IMG/VR virus record: IMGVR_UViG_2917802685_000001
Coordinates: 32,001-96,000 of that record
DNA: 64,000 nt
Direction: 5' to 3' (one strand)
From: a virus
Lineage: Duplodnaviria; Caudoviricetes
A program made the position numbers and the translations under genes. This document shows, one piece after another, positions 24,270-49,792 of the stretch (the stretch's first letter is position 1; every line of letters starts with the position of its first letter). The notes below the pieces were generated by a model, which was not told where the DNA came from, ran no database searches, and saw only the letters and a list, made by a program, of their open reading frames with translations.

Positions 24270-26471
24270 ATGATCAGCAAGAACAACGAGGACACCTCGC
24301 CCCTGGCGAACTTTGATCCCACGGAGATTCACCAGCTGTTCCTGGGATTGGAGGTGCCCGATCCGATTACGTTCGTGGTCTCGCCGAGGTATCTGAACCG
24401 GCCAAACCTCTACCCGCGCCAGGCCACCCTCATGAAGGTGTTCTTCCTGCGCGAGGACCTCTTCACCGACTACGACTACCGGGTCGTCGCCGAGTGGGAC
24501 GAGTCCTACCGCACCGCCAAGTCCTCCAACGAACAGCGGGCCGCGCGCGCCGCTGAACTCGCCGAGACCAGCCCCGAAGCCGCCCTCGAAGCCGAGGTCG
24601 ACGGCATCATGACCGAGGCCCTCGACGCCATCGCCGCCCAGGCCCTGCTGGAGGGCAACGAGGACGCCCCCAAGATGCCCCTGTCCGGCTCCCCGGACCT
24701 CCTGGGCCGCATGCGCGCCTGCAAGGCTCTCGGCTACAGCTGGTTCAAAGAGATCCTCCTGGTCATGGGCCGCCGCGCAGGCAAGGGCCACATCAGCGCC
24801 CTGGCCATGGCCTACGTCCTGTGGTGCTACATGGCCAAGGGCGACCCCCAGGAGTTCTACGGCGTCGACCGCGACAAGAAGCTCGCCGTGCTGATCTTCG
24901 CCGGTAAGCGCGACCAGGCCAAACAGAACCTGTGGCGCGACCTCGTCAACGTCGTCACCGGCGGCCCGTGTTTCGCCCCCTACATCGCCGACAGCCTCGG
25001 CGAGAAGCTCTCCGTCTACGCGCCGAACGACTTCGTCCGCATGGAAGACATGCGCAAGCGCGGCATCAAGACCGCCATGGACATGGCCACCTTCCACATC
25101 CTGCCCAAGGAATCCACCGTCATGGCGGGCCGTGGCCCGGCCTCCATGATCCTCGGCTTCGACGAGATGGCCCACGTCGTCAACAGCGGCGCCAACCGCT
25201 CCGCCGGAGAGGTCTACGACGCCTCCACCCCCTCCCTCGACCAGTTCGGCAGAGACGGCTTCATCGTCGAGCCCAGCTCGCCGTGGGAGATGAGCGGCAA
25301 GTTCTACGACAACTGGCTGCGCGCCACCAGCTACGAGGACGACGGCACCCCCACCTACGCGAACGTCATGATGATCCAGCTCCCCAGCTGGGACGTCTAC
25401 CTCGACTGGCAGATCGCCCACGAACTGCCCCTCTTCCCCGAGGGCTTCACCGGCGACAACGGCGAGTACGCCGACTGCGACCCGCCCGGCTTCAAGCCCC
25501 TCAAGGGCGCCATCCAGAACTTCGACGAAGAGATGCGCAAGCTGGAGAAGGCCGACCCCGACACCTTCGCCGTCGAGCGCCGCGCCCAGTGGGCCACCGT
25601 CCTGGACGCCTACCTCAATCCGGACAAGGTCGAATCCGTCTTCGGCCCCTGGCACGAGCGCCCCGTCGAATACGGCAGCCCGCTCATCCTGCCCACCACC
25701 CAGGGCATCCTCGCCTACACCTACAAGGGCCACGCCGACCCCAGCTCCGTCAACTGCCGCTTCGGCGTCGCCCTCGCCCACACAGAGATCGACGCCGAGG
25801 GCCGCCCCCACGTCGTCTTCGACAAGATCCACTACTTCGATCCGGCCGACTTCCCGAACCACACCATCGACTACGAGGAAGTCGAGGACTGGATCTGGCA
25901 CGACATGATCGTCCCCTTCAGCCCCGACGACTTCACCTTCGACCAGTACCAGTCGGTCGGATCCATCCAGTCACTCGTCAAGCGGACCGCCAAGACGCGC
26001 CTGCCCAAGAAGGTCAACATCTGGGAGCGCACCGCCACCAACCAGATCAACTGGCGCTACGCCGAGACCTTCAAGGCCGCGATCAACATGGGCCTGGTCC
26101 ACGCGCCCGAGCACGAAGAGGGCATGCTGGAGCTGAAGTTCCTCCAGAAGAAGCCCGGCATCAACCGCGTCGATCACCCCACCATCGGTCCCGTCCAGAC
26201 CAAGGACATCGCCGATGCGATCATGATCACAACGTTCGCGCTCATCGGTGACTGGATCGAGGGCTACAAGGAGATGCTCAACGGCGCCAGGCCCGCTGGC
26301 GCCATGGTGGGTGGCCTGCACGGATCCAGCGCCCGCACCCCCGACATGGCCATGCCTGACCAGGACACACAGGCCCGCCTGAACGCCCTGCGCAGCTTCA
26401 CCCGCACCCGTACAGGACGCCAGGGCTGGGATCAAGGCCTCGGCCGCACAAGGTCCGGATATCGCCGCTGA
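24270..26471 (+). CDS. terL: Terminase large subunit
   Basis: MGRRAGKG, QA, GFDEMAH, HADPS, FDQYQS, KDIADA. Confidence 0.9.
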   Translation: MISKNNEDTSPLANFDPTEIHQLFLGLEVPDPITFVVSPRYLNRPNLYPRQATLMKVFFLREDLFTDYDYRVVAEWDESYRTAKSSNEQRAARAAELAETSPEAALEAEVDGIMTEALDAIAAQALLEGNEDAPKMPLSGSPDLLGRMRACKALGYSWFKEILLVMGRRAGKGHISALAMAYVLWCYMAKGDPQEFYGVDRDKKLAVLIFAGKRDQAKQNLWRDLVNVVTGGPCFAPYIADSLGEKLSVYAPNDFVRMEDMRKRGIKTAMDMATFHILPKESTVMAGRGPASMILGFDEMAHVVNSGANRSAGEVYDASTPSLDQFGRDGFIVEPSSPWEMSGKFYDNWLRATSYEDDGTPTYANVMMIQLPSWDVYLDWQIAHELPLFPEGFTGDNGEYADCDPPGFKPLKGAIQNFDEEMRKLEKADPDTFAVERRAQWATVLDAYLNPDKVESVFGPWHERPVEYGSPLILPTTQGILAYTYKGHADPSSVNCRFGVALAHTEIDAEGRPHVVFDKIHYFDPADFPNHTIDYEEVEDWIWHDMIVPFSPDDFTFDQYQSVGSIQSLVKRTAKTRLPKKVNIWERTATNQINWRYAETFKAAINMGLVHAPEHEEGMLELKFLQKKPGINRVDHPTIGPVQTKDIADAIMITTFALIGDWIEGYKEMLNGARPAGAMVGGLHGSSARTPDMAMPDQDTQARLNALRSFTRTRTGRQGWDQGLGRTRSGYRR

Positions 26472-26783: not shown

Positions 26784-29471
26784 ATGACGGACATCAGCGC
26801 GACCAGCTTCTTCCGCCAGGCGGGCGTCGCCGACGGCGGCATCGACTTCGACCACGAAGAGACCGACACCGGCAGCTCGATCTGGCCGACCAGGATCAAG
26901 CTCAAGGCCCTGCACCCCGAGACCGGCGAGGAGATGGGCTTCCTCGACTACCAGGTGCCCCGCCGCAAGACCAACAAGATCACCGTCCATGAGCTGAAGA
27001 CCCACGAGGACTACCAGCGCAAGGGCGTCGGCTCCGCCCTCATGGACGAGATGCAGCGCCGCCACCCCGGCACGCCTGTAGATCACGGCGACCGCACCCC
27101 CGCCGGTAAGGCGTGGTGGAAGGGCTACACCGACGGCAAGAAGGTCACCCGGGGCCGAACCATGGCCACCCGCACGACGGCCGCCGCCCCGGAGACCTTC
27201 GCGCGCGGCGACGGCGAGGATTGGCTGGCGCACCGCCAGCGCGTCCGCCACGGCCTGTCCACGGGCCGCATCTCCTACCCGCAGGCCCGCGAGCACGGCT
27301 ACGACGGCGATGCGCGAGAGGACACCCGCGACAGCTGGACCGGACAGCACACCGAAGGCAAGGGCTGGCAGCCCCTGCCCCACCAGCTCTACCACACCAC
27401 CACCGACGCCGCCGGAGTCGCCGCCCACGGCCTGCGCAGCGGCGGAGAACTCGGTCAGGACAGGGGCCACGGTCTCGGCGGCACCCCCGAGTGGCTGTCC
27501 CTGACCGACCACCACGACAACGCCCACAACATGCTCGATGCGATGCACGAGTACCACGCCCACCTCAACGGCAAGACCAGCTTCCCTGACCTCCACCGAG
27601 CGGCCGAGAGCGGAGAGGGCGCCCAGCAGCCCTTCCACAAGCCCTTCGTGGACGGCATCTCGGAGATGTACAACGAGCACCACCGAGACTCGCTGATGCG
27701 GGGGAAGCGCATCGAGCCCGGCTTCGCCACCTACGACGAGGCCAAGGAGAAGGGCTGGACGCCACACCCGACCCTCCACAAGGACTTCGGCGAGGACAAG
27801 CACGGCCGCCACATCGGCACCGGCTGGGAGCGCGACTCCAACCTCGAAGAGCGCCACGACGAGTACGGAGCCTTCTCCCGCGCCCGCCAGTTCTCCGGCA
27901 ACGGCAAGCCCTCCGTGCTGTTCACCAGCAACGACCGCCGGGCGTTCGCCGACAAGGACCCCAGGAACTTCGCCGTCCTCCACGTCCGCCCCCGCCCCGG
28001 CGGCCACGGCTTCCCCGGCGGCGACAAGCACGAGTGGCGCACCGGCAGCGGCGACGCCGTTGAGGTCCACGGCGAGCCCATCCGCCGTCAGGCCCTACGC
28101 GTCACGGCGGCCGTCCAGGACGGCGACGACATCCCGTCCCGCCTCCTCAACCCCCACGGCCACCACGTCCGCGCCCGGGTCGAGGGCAACACGAACGTTG
28201 AGATGGTCCCGCGCCACGAGGTCGAGCGCTACGCCAGCCAGCCGACCGACGACGCGCACACCAAGGAGGTCGGCACCCACGTCGCCACCAGCGGCGAGAT
28301 GGAGCCCCTCCTCCTGCACTACCACCCCGCCAGCGGTGAGGCCTACCTCGGCGAGGGCAACCACCGCTTGCGCGCCGCCAAGGCCCTGGGTATGGACCAC
28401 GTCCCCCTGCGCGTGAGCCGCTCCAGCTACGGCCTGCCCGGCCCCGGCGTGAAGGTCCCCCAGGACCACCCCGCCATCGCGGCAGGCGGCCACGTCCCGG
28501 CCGACATCTACCCCAGCCACATCGGCCTCACCGCAGTGGACAAGCCCGCCATCCCGGAGGGTGACCTGCGCAGCGCCAGGAACGACTACAACCTCACCGG
28601 CCGCCCCCGCCTGGCGGCAGCCGACACCCCCGTGCCGGACAACACCCAGCCGTACCAGCACGAGCACGACTGGCTTCCCCACGGCCACTTCTTCGGCCCC
28701 GGGAAGAAGGGCCTGGACCCGCGCCTGTTCGACGAGAACGACCGGATGCACCCGATCGTCCGCCAGCACCTGCTGTCTCTGCTCAACGCCTTCTGGACCC
28801 CGAAGTACGGCGACTCCTGGCAGTCCTGGGCCCGCGTCTACCTCACCGGCTCCGAGGCCTCCCACTGGTACGGCAACGGCGACCTCGACGTCCTCATCGG
28901 CATTGACCACGAGGCCCTCAACCACCACGTCGACCACTTCACCGGCGAGCCGGACGACGCGGTCGACGAGCGCCTCACCAACGAGCTGCGCGAGGGCCTC
29001 AACGACGACCACCGGATGTTCCCCGGCCCGGACGGCAAGGACACCGGCCCCTGGGAGTCGACCTTCTACGTCAACCCGGGCTCGTACGACATCCGCGACC
29101 TCAAGCCCTACGCCGCCTACGACATCACCCGCGACGAGTGGGCCGTCAAGCCGGTCGAGGTCCCCGACGACTTCGGGCCCGAGAAGCTCCCCGAGTCCAC
29201 CTGGGACGTCCTCGACGCGCTGCAGAAGCTCATCGGCGCCATCCAGGAGCTGCCCGCCGGAACCCGGGAGCGCGAGGGCGCCGCGCTGTACGATTACCTC
29301 CACGCTGACCGCCACAGCGCTTTCGGCCCCGAGGGATCGGGCCTCTATGACCCTGCCAACGCTGTCTGGAAGGCCCTCGACAAGGCCCCCGGCAAGCCGC
29401 TGCAGCAGCTCATCGACTGGAAACACGCCCACGACGGGACCGCCGCCACGGACCTGGAGACCGCAGCATGA
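26784..29471 (+). CDS. Polyvalent protein 1: GNAT + ART-like + ParB/Srx-like + nucleotidyltransferase
   Basis: YQRKGVGSALM; LYHTT..V..HGL; EGNHRLRAA; LTGS......DLDV. Confidence 0.8.
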   Translation: MTDISATSFFRQAGVADGGIDFDHEETDTGSSIWPTRIKLKALHPETGEEMGFLDYQVPRRKTNKITVHELKTHEDYQRKGVGSALMDEMQRRHPGTPVDHGDRTPAGKAWWKGYTDGKKVTRGRTMATRTTAAAPETFARGDGEDWLAHRQRVRHGLSTGRISYPQAREHGYDGDAREDTRDSWTGQHTEGKGWQPLPHQLYHTTTDAAGVAAHGLRSGGELGQDRGHGLGGTPEWLSLTDHHDNAHNMLDAMHEYHAHLNGKTSFPDLHRAAESGEGAQQPFHKPFVDGISEMYNEHHRDSLMRGKRIEPGFATYDEAKEKGWTPHPTLHKDFGEDKHGRHIGTGWERDSNLEERHDEYGAFSRARQFSGNGKPSVLFTSNDRRAFADKDPRNFAVLHVRPRPGGHGFPGGDKHEWRTGSGDAVEVHGEPIRRQALRVTAAVQDGDDIPSRLLNPHGHHVRARVEGNTNVEMVPRHEVERYASQPTDDAHTKEVGTHVATSGEMEPLLLHYHPASGEAYLGEGNHRLRAAKALGMDHVPLRVSRSSYGLPGPGVKVPQDHPAIAAGGHVPADIYPSHIGLTAVDKPAIPEGDLRSARNDYNLTGRPRLAAADTPVPDNTQPYQHEHDWLPHGHFFGPGKKGLDPRLFDENDRMHPIVRQHLLSLLNAFWTPKYGDSWQSWARVYLTGSEASHWYGNGDLDVLIGIDHEALNHHVDHFTGEPDDAVDERLTNELREGLNDDHRMFPGPDGKDTGPWESTFYVNPGSYDIRDLKPYAAYDITRDEWAVKPVEVPDDFGPEKLPESTWDVLDALQKLIGAIQELPAGTREREGAALYDYLHADRHSAFGPEGSGLYDPANAVWKALDKAPGKPLQQLIDWKHAHDGTAATDLETAA

Positions 29472-31954
29472 CCGAGTTCAACGCCGTCGCCCACTTCCGC
29501 CAGGCTGCCTGGTCCGACGAGGAAGGCCTGTCCGACAAGACCCGGGCCGCCGTCGACCGGGCCGAGGGCGACTGGCACACCCACCGGCAGTACCTCGCCG
29601 AAGACCACATGAACAAGCAACTGGACCCGGAGACCAACCGGCTCGCCCACCAGGGCCACGCCCAGCGCACCGCCAACAAGATCACCGACGCCGAGGGCCT
29701 GCCCCCCGTCAAGGTCCTCGTCCACGACTCACCGAACGTCGCCGGGCGCGGCACAGCCCACGACGGCAGCCCGGTCATCGCGCTCGGCGAGAACACCCTG
29801 AAGCACACCACCCTCATCCACGAGCTGACGCACCACATGCGCCAGCCCCACGAGGACGACCCCGACCACAACGCGGGCGGCTTCTACGGCGACTACATCG
29901 GCATGCTGCAGCGCCACCACCCCGACCCCGACGCGTACGTGCACATGATGGACGCCAACAAGCTCGCCGTGGCCCACATGCGCGCCCACCCCGGCAACTT
30001 CCCACCCCGGACCGCGAGTGCGGCCTACGATGCCCCAGAAGGAGGCAGCCATGGATCCGAACGAGCAGGACGAGACGATGGACCCCGAGGTCGAAGCGGA
30101 GATCCTGCAGAGGCACGACACTCCCGGGGAGCGCAGCACGGTCAGCGTGAACGAGCTGCGGCACCGGGCCGCCGTGTCCGCGCAGCAGCAGGCGTAGAGC
30201 GCCACCCCGAGCTGCAGGGCGACCTCGACCGCCTCGGCGGAGGCGCCCGCCACGTCCAGGAGACCATCGACGCCCTGCACCACGGCGGCTCCGGCGGCGC
30301 CGTCACCTACCCGCTCTCGCACCCGCTGGAGGGCTGGCACGCAGCCCTCACCAGCGGCGGCCACCAGGTCGTGCACCGGCACGACGGCGAAACCCTCCAC
30401 GTCGGCTACGCCGGACACAACATCGCCGACGCCGAGCAGCGCCTGGGCGCCAGCAACGGAAACGGCTCCCTGCCGGTGGAGTTCCACAAGGGCGCCGAGA
30501 AAGACTTCGACGGCCTCCACCCCGAGGTCCAGGAGAAGGCCCTCAACACCATCGACCGCCTCGCACGCGGCGAGCAGCACAAGTACGACCACGCCCTCAA
30601 CGGCGGACAATGGGAGAGCGGCGGCTGGCGATCGGCCCGCGCCGACTTCCTGCACCGCGTCACCCACCGCTTCGAGGACGCCGACGGCAACCCCACTCCT
30701 CCCGAGCGCGCGGCCCGGCTGTTCGTCGGCCACATTGGCCCGCACAACTACGGCGACGCCGCCAAGCGCCTCTCCAGCCTGACCGGCTTCTTCCGGCAGG
30801 CCAGCCTGCCGCAGGAGTGGTACCACGGCTCCGGGGCCGTCTTCGACCGCTTCGATCCGAGCAAGGACAAGACCGTCCAGGACGAGAGCGCCGAGCCCAA
30901 GCACTGGAACAGCCACCTCGGCTCCCACTTCTCCAGCGACCACCGCGTCGCCCAGGAGTTCGCCCAGCGCCAGGGCGGCGGCCACGTCTACCACGTCCAG
31001 CTCAACCTGCAGAACCCCAAGCACTACGAGTCCGAGCACGACCTGGACAAGGAAGCTGTCCTGTGGGCTCACCACAACGGCCACGACATGGGGCCGTCGG
31101 TGAGCAAACCGGCCTACCGCGAGCACATCGAGCCGGACGAGTGGCAGTTCTTCCCCAAGTACGACGACCACGGCGACCCCCGGCCGAACACCCAAGAGAT
31201 CGCCCACGGCTTCCGTGACCACCTCAAGGCCCAGGGGCACGACGGCATCACCTACGGCAACGAGTTCGAGGGCGCCCACAACGGCTTCCACGCCGGAGAA
31301 CGGCACCTCAGCGCTATCGCCTTCCACCCTGACCAGGTCACCATCACGCAGCGGCACAGAGGCAACGAGCCCCACACCGCCGCCCTGCAACTGACCGAGG
31401 CCGAAAACCGTCTGCTGCAGCGTCAGGCGGCGGCCGTCGAGAACGGCAGTGGCGTGATGGTTGCGTTCGTCCCGCCGCACGAGGTGGCAGAGCAACTCGC
31501 CCTGCACGGCGGCCAATTGGTCGATGACCTGCACATCACCCTGGCGTACCTGGGCAATGTGGCCGACTACACCAAAGAGCAGCTGACACTGCTGCCGCAA
31601 TTGGTTTCGGCCTGGGCAATGAGGCAAAAGGCAGTTACGATCCACATCGGAGGCGTTGGAACGTTCAACAACGCCTACAAAGACCAGCACGTCCTGTGGG
31701 CGCACCCCGACATACCCGGTGGGGTGCAGATGCACGTCAGCCTGGCTGACTACCTGGAACGGTACGGGTACCGTCTTCCCAGTGAGCACGGCTGGACGGC
31801 CCATATGACGCTGCAATACGTCGACCGGCACAAGCGGTTCATGCCGCAGCTGCCAGAAGTCGGCTGGGAGGCGACCGAGGTGGTCACCTTTGTCGGAGCG
31901 GCTCGCCACGCCGCGCGCCTCGGCCTCCGTCCCAGCACACCCACCACGCTCTAG
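29468..31954 (+). CDS. Polyvalent protein 2: zincin + 2 RelE-like + ART + 2H phosphoesterase (Acb1-like)
   Basis: HELTH; VEFHKGAEKDF..L...IG.H; WYHGS..FDRFD..G.HF..NP..GHDG; HITL/HMTL. Confidence 0.82.
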   Translation: MTEFNAVAHFRQAAWSDEEGLSDKTRAAVDRAEGDWHTHRQYLAEDHMNKQLDPETNRLAHQGHAQRTANKITDAEGLPPVKVLVHDSPNVAGRGTAHDGSPVIALGENTLKHTTLIHELTHHMRQPHEDDPDHNAGGFYGDYIGMLQRHHPDPDAYVHMMDANKLAVAHMRAHPGNFPPRTASAAYDAPEGGSHGSERAGRDDGPRGRSGDPAEARHSRGAQHGQRERAAAPGRRVRAAAGVERHPELQGDLDRLGGGARHVQETIDALHHGGSGGAVTYPLSHPLEGWHAALTSGGHQVVHRHDGETLHVGYAGHNIADAEQRLGASNGNGSLPVEFHKGAEKDFDGLHPEVQEKALNTIDRLARGEQHKYDHALNGGQWESGGWRSARADFLHRVTHRFEDADGNPTPPERAARLFVGHIGPHNYGDAAKRLSSLTGFFRQASLPQEWYHGSGAVFDRFDPSKDKTVQDESAEPKHWNSHLGSHFSSDHRVAQEFAQRQGGGHVYHVQLNLQNPKHYESEHDLDKEAVLWAHHNGHDMGPSVSKPAYREHIEPDEWQFFPKYDDHGDPRPNTQEIAHGFRDHLKAQGHDGITYGNEFEGAHNGFHAGERHLSAIAFHPDQVTITQRHRGNEPHTAALQLTEAENRLLQRQAAAVENGSGVMVAFVPPHEVAEQLALHGGQLVDDLHITLAYLGNVADYTKEQLTLLPQLVSAWAMRQKAVTIHIGGVGTFNNAYKDQHVLWAHPDIPGGVQMHVSLADYLERYGYRLPSEHGWTAHMTLQYVDRHKRFMPQLPEVGWEATEVVTFVGAARHAARLGLRPSTPTTL
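30051..30197 (+). CDS. Overprinted 48-aa acidic antitoxin-like peptide nested out of frame in polyvalent protein 2
   Basis: AGAAGGAGG RBS 5 nt before ATG; G/C-ending codons in this frame while host frame turns A/T-ending; stop overlaps start of first RelE-like domain. Confidence 0.7.
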   Translation: MDPNEQDETMDPEVEAEILQRHDTPGERSTVSVNELRHRAAVSAQQQA

Positions 31955-31991: not shown

Positions 31992-32792
31992 GTGAGCACC
32001 GCCACCACCACCAAGACCATCCCCACTCAGTACCAGAGCGCCATGGACGACGCCGACGCGATGAACTGGGACGTGGTCTGCAGCGACACCAGCGTCAAGC
32101 TCACGCCGCCCAACGCGAAGAAGGGCGACCAGATCGTCCTGCCCCTGACGAAGCCGCTGGCGCCGCCGCAGCTGCGCGTGACGCTCGTCGACAAGGGCTT
32201 CGTCGCGGCGGTGCAGGCGTGGGAGCGCGAGCAGGGCAAGGGCGAGCCGGAGCCGCAGGCCGAGGAGAAGGCCACGGCGGCCACCAAGCCGGAGAAGCCG
32301 GTGCGTGTCTGCAAGTACTGCGAGGAGGACCCGGAGGTCAAGAAGCCCTTCTCCACCACGCACCCCCCGGCGCTGGGCGTCCACCAGCGCCACAAGCACG
32401 GCATCATGGGCGCCAGCTCCGAGGCCATCCGCAAGCGGGGGGAGACGGCCGCGAAGAAGGCCGCGAAGAAGGCTCCGGCGAAGAAGACCACCCCGGCGAA
32501 GAAGGCCGCTGCCGTCACCGCCCCGGTGCCCGCCCCCCGCGCGGCCGAGCCGGTGAAGAAGCAGGAGCCGCTGGTCAACGTCTCCGGCCTGCCCGTCTCG
32601 GTGGCCGCGCCGCTCGGCGAGCTGCTCAACGCCATCAGCGCCACGAGCGGCGACGCGGCCGACCTGCAGAAGGAGGTCGGGACGCTGCGCGACTTCCGCG
32701 ACAAGGTCGACACCCTGGTCCACGACGGCAACCAGACCCCGCTCAAGGCTCTGGCCGCCATCCAGGACCTCGTCCAGGAGACCAAGAAGTAG
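31992..32792 (+). CDS. C2H2 finger + histone-H1-like AKK repeat protein
   Basis: CKYC...LGVHQRHKH; AAKKAAKKAPAKKTTPAKKA; AGGAG RBS. Confidence 0.75.
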   Translation: MSTATTTKTIPTQYQSAMDDADAMNWDVVCSDTSVKLTPPNAKKGDQIVLPLTKPLAPPQLRVTLVDKGFVAAVQAWEREQGKGEPEPQAEEKATAATKPEKPVRVCKYCEEDPEVKKPFSTTHPPALGVHQRHKHGIMGASSEAIRKRGETAAKKAAKKAPAKKTTPAKKAAAVTAPVPAPRAAEPVKKQEPLVNVSGLPVSVAAPLGELLNAISATSGDAADLQKEVGTLRDFRDKVDTLVHDGNQTPLKALAAIQDLVQETKK

Positions 32793-47982: not shown

Positions 47983-48269
47983 TGGGACTGCCCCGCAAGA
48001 ACCCGCCTGCGCCGGGGGAGTACTGCAGTACGACGACAACCAGATACCCCGGTCCGTGCGGCTCCCCGGCTGTATGGCTCGTGTTCTACGCCTGCGACAA
48101 GACCGGCGAGGCGAAGAACGCGAACGCTTGCGGCTCGCACCTGGGCAAACTGCTGGCCGAACTCACGCCGGAAGCGGAATACTCCCGCGAGATGTTCCGC
48201 GTGCTGCCGTGGGACGTCGCCATCGCTGAGCACAAGAAGCGGGCCGCCGCCGAGGCGGCCACCGCGTGA
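47982..48269 (+). CDS. Hypothetical protein
   Basis: TGATG overlap; C..C..ACGSH. Confidence 0.65.
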   Translation: MGLPRKNPPAPGEYCSTTTTRYPGPCGSPAVWLVFYACDKTGEAKNANACGSHLGKLLAELTPEAEYSREMFRVLPWDVAIAEHKKRAAAEAATA

Positions 48270-48523
48270 CCGGAGAGACCTGCGGCGCCGAGCACCCTGA
48301 GGACCCCCGCACGCTGTGCACCCGCGAGCCGCACCAGAACCAGGGTTTCCACTCCGAGCGCCACACCCGCACCGTCTGGCCCGCCGACCCAGTCCCGGCC
48401 GTCCAGGGCACCGGCCGGGCCGCCCTCGCCGCCATCGCCGCCCGCACCACCCGACACCACCACACCGGCCCCGCCAGTGAGGCCGTCAGCAGCTGGAGGA
48501 ACCACGAGGACGCCGACAGGTAG
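48266..48523 (+). CDS. Hypothetical protein
   Basis: GTGA overlap. Confidence 0.6.
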   Translation: MTGETCGAEHPEDPRTLCTREPHQNQGFHSERHTRTVWPADPVPAVQGTGRAALAAIAARTTRHHHTGPASEAVSSWRNHEDADR

Positions 48524-48532
48524 CGGGGCGGG

Positions 48533-48555
48533 GTGTCAGTGGCCTCCCCTACGGT
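48533..48555 (+). promoter_or_regulatory. RecA-NDp (PafBC-type) promoter
   Basis: gTGTCAGTG-N8-TACGGT. Confidence 0.6.
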
Positions 48556-48583
48556 GGCGCCGGGTGTGAAGCCCGGCGCCACC
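48553..48583 (+). terminator. Terminator hairpin
   Basis: 12-bp stem followed by gcgtttt. Confidence 0.75.
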
Positions 48584-48601
48584 TGCGTTTTCCGGCCCGA
48601 G

Positions 48602-48635
48602 TAGACAGGCAACGATTGATGCCTTAGAGTGGGGG
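48602..48635 (+). promoter_or_regulatory. Conserved promoter/operator copy 5
   Basis: TAGACA g GCAAC-GATT-GATGC ct TAGAGT GGG. Confidence 0.8.
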
Positions 48636-48664
48636 CCATCTTCCCGCCAAGAGGAGCACACACG

Positions 48665-49792
48665 ATGACCGACAAGCCCCTGACCGAGATGACGCCGGTC
48701 GAGATCGACACCGAGCTGTCCCGGCTCTGGAACGACGAGGCGCAGGCCGAGGCCCGCCGCCTCAGCCTCCAGGCCTCCCTGCACAAGCAGGTCGGGGACG
48801 AGGGGCGCCGGGTGCGCGGCGCGCGGGGACTGGTCTTCTCCCTGTCCTGGGAACAGGTCCTGGAAAAGGCCCTGATGAAGGCCCTCGCCCCGCACACCGA
48901 GTTCGAGGCCGTCGTCGCCCGCGACGTCAAGCAGGTGCTGACCAACTGGGCCATGGCGGCCCGGGAGCTGGAGGTACTGGCGGCCGAGATCAAGCCGTAC
49001 GTCGACGAGTACGTGCGCCGGGGCCGCTGGAACCGCGTCTTCCTGGCCCAGAGCCACGACGGCCACGCCCACAACGGCACCGAGTGCACCACCTGCCACC
49101 ACGGCGAGGAGCGCACTCAGTTCGCGTGGCTGATCCAGTACTCCGGTAAGACCGAGGCCGAGATCGTCGCCGACGCCGGATGGCGCGCCTGCACCACCTG
49201 CTACCCGAGCGCCCCGGTCGGCGACGAGAAGACCCTCCCCACCAAGATGTTCACCCCGGACGAGGAGACGGCCCGCAAGGCCCGCGAGGAACGCGAGGAG
49301 GTGCGGACGCGGCGCGCGGCCAACAAGACCGCCAAGGGCATCACCGCCCCCGACGGCGGCCCCCTGCGCGACCGGCACGGCAGCCGGATCGAGACCGAGC
49401 GCGCGGCCGTCATCGAGGCGACCGACGGCCTGTCCGAGCGGTACAAGAACCTGAGGATCGAGCAGATCCTGACGGCCGACCCCGACCTGACGCCGTTCTT
49501 CTTCGACCGCGACAAGCGCACCGAGAACGAGGCCCGTGACCGCTCGCACGCGATGAACCTGATCGTGGCCATCGCGCACAAGCGGGGGGTCAGCGATGAA
49601 GAGGTGCTGGCCGAGCTGGAGCCCAAGGCGCTCGCCAAGGCCAAGCGCGACCTCGGTGGCAAGGACTGGGCGCCCCGCTTCCGCTACTCCGCGTCCTTCC
49701 ATGAGGGCGTGTTCGACGCCTACACGGCCAAGTGCAAGGCCGAGGAGCGCAAGCCCTTCGAGGCCCTGACGCTGCGCTGGGCCAAGTTCTAG
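48665..49792 (+). CDS. Hypothetical protein with H..C..C/CxxC metal site
   Basis: GHAHNGTECTTC...ACTTCYPSAP; GAGGAG RBS. Confidence 0.8.
   Translation: MTDKPLTEMTPVEIDTELSRLWNDEAQAEARRLSLQASLHKQVGDEGRRVRGARGLVFSLSWEQVLEKALMKALAPHTEFEAVVARDVKQVLTNWAMAARELEVLAAEIKPYVDEYVRRGRWNRVFLAQSHDGHAHNGTECTTCHHGEERTQFAWLIQYSGKTEAEIVADAGWRACTTCYPSAPVGDEKTLPTKMFTPDEETARKAREEREEVRTRRAANKTAKGITAPDGGPLRDRHGSRIETERAAVIEATDGLSERYKNLRIEQILTADPDLTPFFFDRDKRTENEARDRSHAMNLIVAIAHKRGVSDEEVLAELEPKALAKAKRDLGGKDWAPRFRYSASFHEGVFDAYTAKCKAEERKPFEALTLRWAKF

Follow-up and report, generated by a model that had tools for sequence, protein, structure and literature searches.

A putative antitoxin gene nested out of frame within a polyvalent protein gene of a Streptomyces phage-plasmid

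INTRODUCTION

How can a protein with toxin-like domains be made without harm to the cell that makes it, and could the gene for an antidote lie inside the gene for that protein? These questions are raised by a locus in a 64,000-nt stretch of virus DNA (Duplodnaviria; Caudoviricetes), positions 32,001 to 96,000 of the IMG/VR record IMGVR_UViG_2917802685_000001. The whole stretch is referred to here as the window, and positions are counted from its first nucleotide. The locus is an open reading frame (ORF) of 828 aa whose product is predicted to contain two RelE-like domains in tandem. Directly upstream of the sequence for these domains, and wholly within the 828-aa ORF, there is a second ORF in the +1 frame. 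An initial annotation of the window proposed that a toxin-antitoxin operon had been captured in frame by the gene for a polyprotein and that the antitoxin had been kept as a nested gene. We have followed up this proposal by comparison with homologues and by structure prediction. The evidence suggests that the nested ORF is a real gene and that its product may be an antidote to the RelE-like domains encoded next to it.

RESULTS

The nested ORF has the signals and the composition of a gene

The nested ORF is preceded by the Shine-Dalgarno (SD) sequence AGAAGGAGG, which is separated by a 5-nt spacer from the ATG at 30051, and 48 codons can be read from there to a TAG (Table 1). These are the strong ribosome-binding site and the 48-aa out-of-frame ORF ending at 30197 that the initial annotation had described. 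The TAG is carried by a rare polyprotein codon, GTA (30194-30196), and falls inside the codons for strand 1 of the first RelE/YafQ-fold domain.

The length of the open +1 frame carries no weight on its own, since 48 codons is also the median length of open runs in that frame. The third-position GC content (GC3) of the polyprotein frame is 0.93-1.0 elsewhere and drops to 0.28-0.48 across 30030-30200, and over the same interval the GC3 of the nested frame climbs to 0.90-1.0. The GC content at the first, second and third codon positions is 0.75, 0.40 and 0.94 in the nested ORF, compared with 0.78, 0.46 and 0.93 in the RelE module, which is the adjacent true coding DNA. The claim that the nested codons end in G or C, and that the codons of the polyprotein frame over the same bases do not, is borne out by these figures. 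No other internal frame-switch island is present in the window's 54 long high-GC3 ORFs, which comprise 17,095 codons. The two products of the overlap are oppositely charged, the nested peptide at about -7 (pI 4.4) and the linker at +5. The RefSeq record has a single coding sequence (CDS) at the locus, and the small ORF has been called a 'hypothetical protein' in a few assemblies, two NCBI Streptomyces records included.

One other GC3 frame switch is present in the long ORFs of the window. It is at 48172-48276, the 3' end of the minus-strand ORF 48163-49116, and might reflect a wrongly placed gene end, overlap with the gene that follows or a frameshift.

The polyprotein frame is open across the nested gene in 20 of the 20 loci tested. 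Any one sequence would be open there by chance with P ~0.66, and the openness is therefore only mild evidence for the polyprotein; for the same reason, fusions of this kind can arise easily in high-GC DNA. Better support for a continuous polyprotein comes from the stop-free domains upstream, from the RelE module being without a start codon and from a conserved inter-domain motif of the TATAFF type that lies upstream in frame.

The nested ORF is conserved together with the RelE-like domain

A profile search of 1.8 billion proteins gave 70 with the RelE-like domain. Most of these 70 are polyvalent proteins; they reach 3306 aa in length and have the domain in single copy. The DNA of 21 distinct loci was compared with the window. 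The close set consists of 14 distinct homologues with 63-86% identity in the module, taken from virus contigs, a Streptomyces genome, metagenomes and read assemblies; the remote set consists of seven loci with a single RelE-like domain (L007, L027, L028, L029, L031, L032 and L127).

In all 14 close homologues there is an ATG in the +1 frame 3-6 nt past AAGGAGG, AGGAGG or GGAGG, followed by an ORF of 38-60 codons with a gene-like GC profile, and the TAG is at one fixed base relative to strand 1 of domain 1, within the rare GTA codon. The ATG is kept despite differences in the polyprotein codons over it (CAT-G, TAT-G and AAT-G). With the remote set included, the SD sequence, the ATG, the open frame and the position of the stop are kept in 21 of 21 distinct loci, one of which encodes a remotely similar protein of 2321 aa with a single RelE-like domain. 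This agrees with the expectation that homologues keep the ribosome-binding site, the start codon and the open frame. The stop is TAG in 20 loci and TGA, overlapping a GTG start, in L027. Fifteen loci share the GTAG context of the window, with the TAG beginning one base past the first codon of strand 1, and the remaining six have their stop 1-5 codons upstream of the first strand of the domain.

The GC3 switch was measured in 15 lineages, namely the 14 close homologues and L029, the one remote locus measured, in which it is also present. The third positions of the polyprotein frame, which would otherwise be free, are at ~0.45 GC in these lineages instead of 0.94, and are therefore held as the second codon positions of the nested frame. 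The peptide evolves fast, with ~50% identity against 73% for the module, and the core common to the close homologues is P-E-V-E-A-E-I-L-R-R ... T-P ... D-R ... V-S-L-N-E-L-R. About 25 of 31 inspected remote relatives have a stretch rich in Arg, Gly, Pro and Ala right before the domain. Many of these stretches open with YFGGGH, which would encode GGAGG and an ATG in the +1 frame.

The nested ORF and the RelE-like domain occur together after zincin, NUDIX, GNAT or Zn-ribbon domains, or right behind a 16-residue leader, MTEFNAVAHFRGAY. The ORF is constant across these varied architectures and is therefore to be assigned to the RelE-like domain rather than to the neighbouring domains. The layout goes far beyond what chance would give, and the nested gene is very probably real.

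The polyprotein frame also has a conserved feature in the overlap. An AT-hook-like motif, TAGRG(K/R)PRR, is kept there in remote relatives (P0023-P0060; L029:1440-1470; L031, L028 and L007), and the nested frame over the same bases reads P-Q-D-E. The linker may therefore not be a pure passenger, and both frames may be constrained at this point.

The domains downstream of the nested ORF are predicted to have a RelE/ParE fold

The AlphaFold2 (AF2) model of 30191-30790 has a mean predicted local distance difference test (pLDDT) score of 85 and shows two successive beta-alpha-alpha-beta-beta-beta(-beta)-alpha units. Its closest matches in Foldseek are HP0892/HP0894 of Helicobacter pylori, YafQ, RelE, the RelJK/RelBE toxins of Mycobacterium tuberculosis and YoeB, with TM-scores by target of 0.7-0.8. 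A sequence profile of the module ranks the H. pylori toxins first, at an E value of 0.26 only. On these models the downstream domains have the RelE/ParE fold, and with the TAG in the codons for strand 1 this upholds the claim that the nested stop overlaps the first codons of two tandem RelE-like domains. The hidden Markov models of domain 1 and domain 2 match each other, so the pair represents a tandem duplication. There is no start codon for a separate toxin: GTA is at the homologous position, and there is no in-frame ATG, GTG or TTG until well within domain 1.

The peptide shows a weak likeness to the toxin-binding half of antitoxins

The nested peptide is predicted to form two helices (residues 12-23 and 33-47; pLDDT 85). 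Foldseek found no match to the peptide model, and a peptide profile gave matches at chance level only among PDB sequences. The peptide family was also compared with PF09720 (Unstab_antitox), using a set of 20 PF09720 ORFs from actinomycete genomes. The hhalign score with the C-terminal half of PF09720 was 19.6 (P 0.002), at a probability of only 13%, and none of 400 column-shuffled controls reached this score (control maximum 15.4, mean ~8). Genes for PF09720 proteins lie upstream of PF05016 ParE_toxin genes in seven of eight tested loci, mostly with a 4-nt overlap, and the PF09720 profile has a weak match (E 0.17) to M. tuberculosis ParD2 (8C26). In the crystal structure of M. tuberculosis ParDE2 the toxin is contacted only by residues 36-71 of the antitoxin, which are its C-terminal half (PMC10899793). 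The nearest named clusters in a language-model search with the peptide were the antitoxin families RelB3_C, DUF6290 and Unstab_antitox, at lead-level scores of 0.77-0.80.

The arrangement of the stop is also that of an operon. In the sequence G-TAG the nested stop begins one base past the first codon of the RelE strand, which is the same geometry as that of the ATGA and GTGA overlaps in toxin-antitoxin operons. L027 (130-135) retains GTGA, with the GTG in frame with the domain, where the window has GTAG (30194-30197). This suggests that GTGA has changed to GTAG in the window and in most relatives, which would have kept the stop of the small gene and removed the start of the toxin. There is also a stand-alone relative of 87 aa, P0054, which touches PF05016 at E 0.006 and has a 40-codon gene upstream with a 4-nt overlap.

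The 86-aa protein P0101 has a weak match (E 0.17) near its N terminus to DUF6290, a family of unknown function, followed by PEVEAEILRRAATP, which is near-identical to the core of the nested peptide. P0101 could represent a complete antitoxin from this lineage that stands on its own.

The host gene encodes a polyvalent protein of a phage-plasmid

The coordinates of the features are given in Table 1. The 828-aa product has an HELTHH motif, an ART-PolyVal domain and a 2H phosphoesterase domain, which makes it a polyvalent protein as Iyer et al. (2017) use the term: with the two RelE-fold domains, it holds several unrelated conflict-type domains in one polypeptide encoded by a phage or plasmid.

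Table 1. Features of the locus and its surroundings in the window
Feature	Position	Strand	Basis or remark
Large terminase subunit gene	24270..26471	+	phrog_2, E 1.2e-11; two genes upstream of the 828-aa ORF
828-aa polyvalent protein ORF	29468..31954	+	One annotated CDS, '2'-5' RNA ligase family protein'
HELTHH (HExxH) motif, N-terminal zincin-like domain	29819..29836	+	Motif only
Shine-Dalgarno sequence AGAAGGAGG	30037..30045	+	5 nt before nested ATG 30051
Polyprotein-frame linker over the nested ORF, Arg/Gly/Pro/Ala-rich, pI 11.8, GC3 ~0.4	30050..30196	+	
Nested gene, +1 frame of the 828-aa ORF, 48 codons and TAG (30195-30197)	30051..30197	+	ORF reading, codon-position GC
RelE/YafQ-fold domain 1, beta-alpha-alpha-beta-beta-beta-beta-alpha, divergent	30194..30448	+	AF2, Foldseek
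RelE/YafQ-fold domain 2, family consensus DHAL...HRVTHR...GPHNY kept	30476..30784	+	AF2, Foldseek
ART-PolyVal ADP-ribosyltransferase domain, PF18760, residues 448-624	30809..31339	+	Pfam
2H phosphoesterase (LigT-like) domain, residues 673-798	31484..31861	+	Pfam

The window is identical to part of plasmid pRLB1-9.1 of Streptomyces sp. RLB1-9, which is circular (154 kb), and the virus record of the same element has an estimated completeness of 99%. The element has genes for baseplate J, an NlpC/P60 protein, ParA, a DnaB-like helicase and the alpha subunit of DNA polymerase III. With these genes and a terminase on a circular plasmid, it is therefore a phage-plasmid. A blastn search against phage records gave 0 matches. 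The module was found in only 2 of 401 sampled Streptomycetaceae species genomes, and the 154-kb element has one peptide gene and one module only. Many of the relatives are on contigs of 151-157 kb, several of them from Streptomyces isolates, which suggests a phage-plasmid family of uniform size.

The terminase gene is followed by two long multi-domain ORFs, 26784-29471 and 29468-31954, and the ATG of the 828-aa ORF overlaps the stop of the preceding 895-aa polyvalent ORF (ATGA). The position after terL gives a plausible context for a virion-associated role of the polyprotein. Both polyvalent ORFs open with the leader M-T-x-x-x-A-x-x-(H/F)-F-R-Q-A (window 26796 and 29480; also 30008 and 30788), and a similar motif (RTATAFF or LTxFFRQA) is found at nearly every domain boundary in homologues. 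This boundary motif may be where the HExxH domain cleaves, or a joint at which domains are shuffled by recombination. In L029 (1-123) the gene before the 2321-aa polyvalent ORF encodes a product of 1197 aa with faint intein and LAGLIDADG hits, which may be an intein-bearing terminase.

DISCUSSION

The explanation that we favour, and which the sequence makes moderately likely, is that a RelE/ParE-type toxin-antitoxin cassette has been captured in a phage polyvalent gene and brings with it a nested antidote gene. As to the role of the peptide, the reading with most support is that it is the antidote to the RelE-like domains encoded next to it, and we hold this with similar, moderate confidence. 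In the cassette built into the polyvalent protein gene, the antitoxin-like gene would keep its own ribosome-binding site, ATG and stop. Ribosomes translating the polyprotein would read the same bases one base earlier, giving a basic and probably disordered linker that leads in frame into the RelE-fold domains. The peptide would be made separately from the strong internal SD sequence, probably in excess over the polyprotein, and may bind one or both RelE-like domains through its two helices, in the manner of the C-terminal half of PF09720/ParD-type antitoxins. Such binding would keep the domains harmless in the cell that produces the polyprotein. The former start of the toxin (GTG or ATG overlapping TGA) would have become GTA overlapping TAG; with its start codon replaced, the toxin could no longer be translated except within the polyprotein. 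The polyprotein, which the zincin-like domain may cut at the repeated linker motifs, would then act in the next host without the peptide, and from the place of its gene after the terminase it is plausible that it is delivered in this way into a newly infected cell.

The proposal of a captured operon with a nested antitoxin is thus supported in part. On its side are the conservation of the nested gene, its linkage to the domain, the likeness to PF09720, the operon-type stop, the P0054 gene pair and a polyvalent host gene after terL. Several results weigh against it. The module reaches the threshold of no model in Pfam or NCBIfam, the PBECR models being included in the Pfam comparison. None of the 20 peptides tested against these two databases reaches a threshold either, PF09720 is not matched even at E 10, and the hhalign probability given above is low. 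Domain 1 has GHNI where relatives show H-x-Y, and the C-terminal Tyr of the family motif is absent from it. With pI values of 5.9 and 6.5, both RelE-like domains are acidic to neutral, unlike the typically basic ribosome-dependent RelE toxins. Additionally, in three remote relatives (P0021, P0056 and P0058) the linker motif is followed immediately by the domain, which leaves no space for a nested gene.

The substitutions count on the same side. A frame-specific comparison of synonymous sites across homologues had been suggested as a check, and it did not separate the frames: the Nei-Gojobori ratio is 0.87-0.95 in the nested frame, against 1.16-1.18 in the polyprotein frame and 0.84-0.88 in the third, under an extreme GC3 bias that limits the comparison. 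The isolated single changes counted in nearest-neighbour pairs are synonymous in the nested frame alone in 22 cases, in the polyprotein frame alone in 25 and in neither frame in 27, for a neutral expectation of 16.5, 22.6 and 34.4, respectively, and the GC3 bias limits this test as well. Composition gives a stronger argument for selection on the nested frame than the substitutions do.

The coding signature and the conservation are silent on function, and it is conceivable, though unlikely, that the nested gene is real and translated and that its product is not an antidote but a chaperone or packaging adaptor, a regulator of processing or an effector in its own right. Such a role would suit domains that are acidic and may not be classical toxins, and the three relatives that have the domain without the nested gene. 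It does not explain why the peptide goes with the RelE-like domain alone, nor why its stop is at the position of an operon overlap; moreover, the alignment with the toxin-binding half of PF09720 beats all shuffled controls, and the three nearest named clusters in the protein atlas are all antitoxin families, albeit at lead level. We consider it quite improbable that the nested frame is a relic, that is, an ancestral antitoxin gene swallowed by the fusion and no longer expressed, with the polyprotein as the sole product and a basic linker that may matter itself. In a relic the SD sequence, the ATG and the open frame would be lost and the former second positions would drift to high GC, and neither is seen in 21 deeply diverged loci. 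Substitutions without asymmetry between the frames would be expected of a relic, and the polyprotein frame, open in every locus tested, has the conserved basic AT-hook-like motif; an open polyprotein frame is, however, what chance alone predicts.

Two further readings were rejected. Intragenic SD-like sequences can stimulate frameshifting, as in prfB and dnaX, and ribosomes could shift to the +1 frame near the SD-like sequence and back at the TAG, which would make the acidic peptide part of the polyprotein or the end of a shorter product. This would require two coupled shifts, and there is no shared slippery motif at either end in the 21 loci, whereas the strictly conserved ATG at canonical spacing indicates initiation. 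In L002, L005 and L028 there is also hardly any upstream protein to shift from, and recoding is thus very improbable. For paired frameshift errors of sequencing or assembly in the record, nothing speaks beyond the local change of frame. The homologues refute this reading, as the same layout is present in independent isolates, metagenomes and virus contigs, and the nested frame ends in a stop, so that simple rejoining of the frames is impossible; we regard its probability as negligible.

We suggest, tentatively, that actinobacterial phages and phage-plasmids could carry self-contained cassettes in injected polyvalent proteins, in which the antidote is overprinted on the linker before the toxin domain and the pair is shuffled together, the antidote staying in the producer and the toxin going to the next host. 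Such captures would be easy, because extreme third-position GC keeps the read-through frame open at the probability given above.

The locus combines three known kinds of system: the type II toxin-antitoxin module, the nested gene and the polyvalent protein. If the peptide is an antidote, this would explain how a toxin-bearing polyprotein is made without poisoning its producer, which is an open point in the literature on polyvalent proteins. It would also add a compact layout to toxin-antitoxin biology, with the antitoxin wholly inside the toxin-bearing gene and the toxin without a start of its own. The locus also points to small genes of a kind missed in the annotation of the record.

The likeness to RelBE, DinJ-YafQ, YefM-YoeB and ParDE (PF09720-type; M. 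tuberculosis ParDE2, PDB 8C26, PMC10899793) lies in a small acidic gene product encoded directly upstream, with the stop of its gene over the first codons of a RelE/ParE-fold protein at the same one-base offset. The alignment of the peptide with the toxin-binding C-terminal half of the antitoxin and the stand-alone relative encoded in a two-gene arrangement are further likenesses. In contrast to these operons, the antitoxin-like gene is here wholly within another frame. It also lacks the DNA-binding, autoregulatory half of a type II antitoxin: the peptides are of 38-60 aa, have two helices and align with the C-terminal half of PF09720 only. The toxin of a type II module is translated from its own start codon; here the toxin domain, as known from sequence and models, is start-less (GTA), tandem-duplicated, fused to enzymes and not basic.

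Polyvalent proteins of phages and conjugative elements, some with BECR-fold RNase domains, are described by Iyer et al. (2017; PMC5512222). The 828-aa product is alike in being a multi-domain conflict protein, encoded on a phage-plasmid beside packaging genes, and it differs from the polyvalent proteins with BECR-fold RNases in that its RelE-like domains match no PBECR model of Pfam. Term searches of that paper revealed neither a nested or overlapping gene nor a built-in antidote. A search of the wider literature for a nested antitoxin gene found none.

Small genes embedded in the other frame of a larger gene include the Rz/Rz1 spanin genes of phage lambda and comS in srfA of Bacillus subtilis. 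The nested gene described here is of the Rz/Rz1 kind, as it is fully embedded in another frame, has its own start signals and is conserved, and like Rz/Rz1 and comS/srfA it would have a functional link to the product of its host gene. Those pairs are not toxin and antidote, however, and in the locus described here it is the embedded frame that looks older and the host frame that looks like the passenger.

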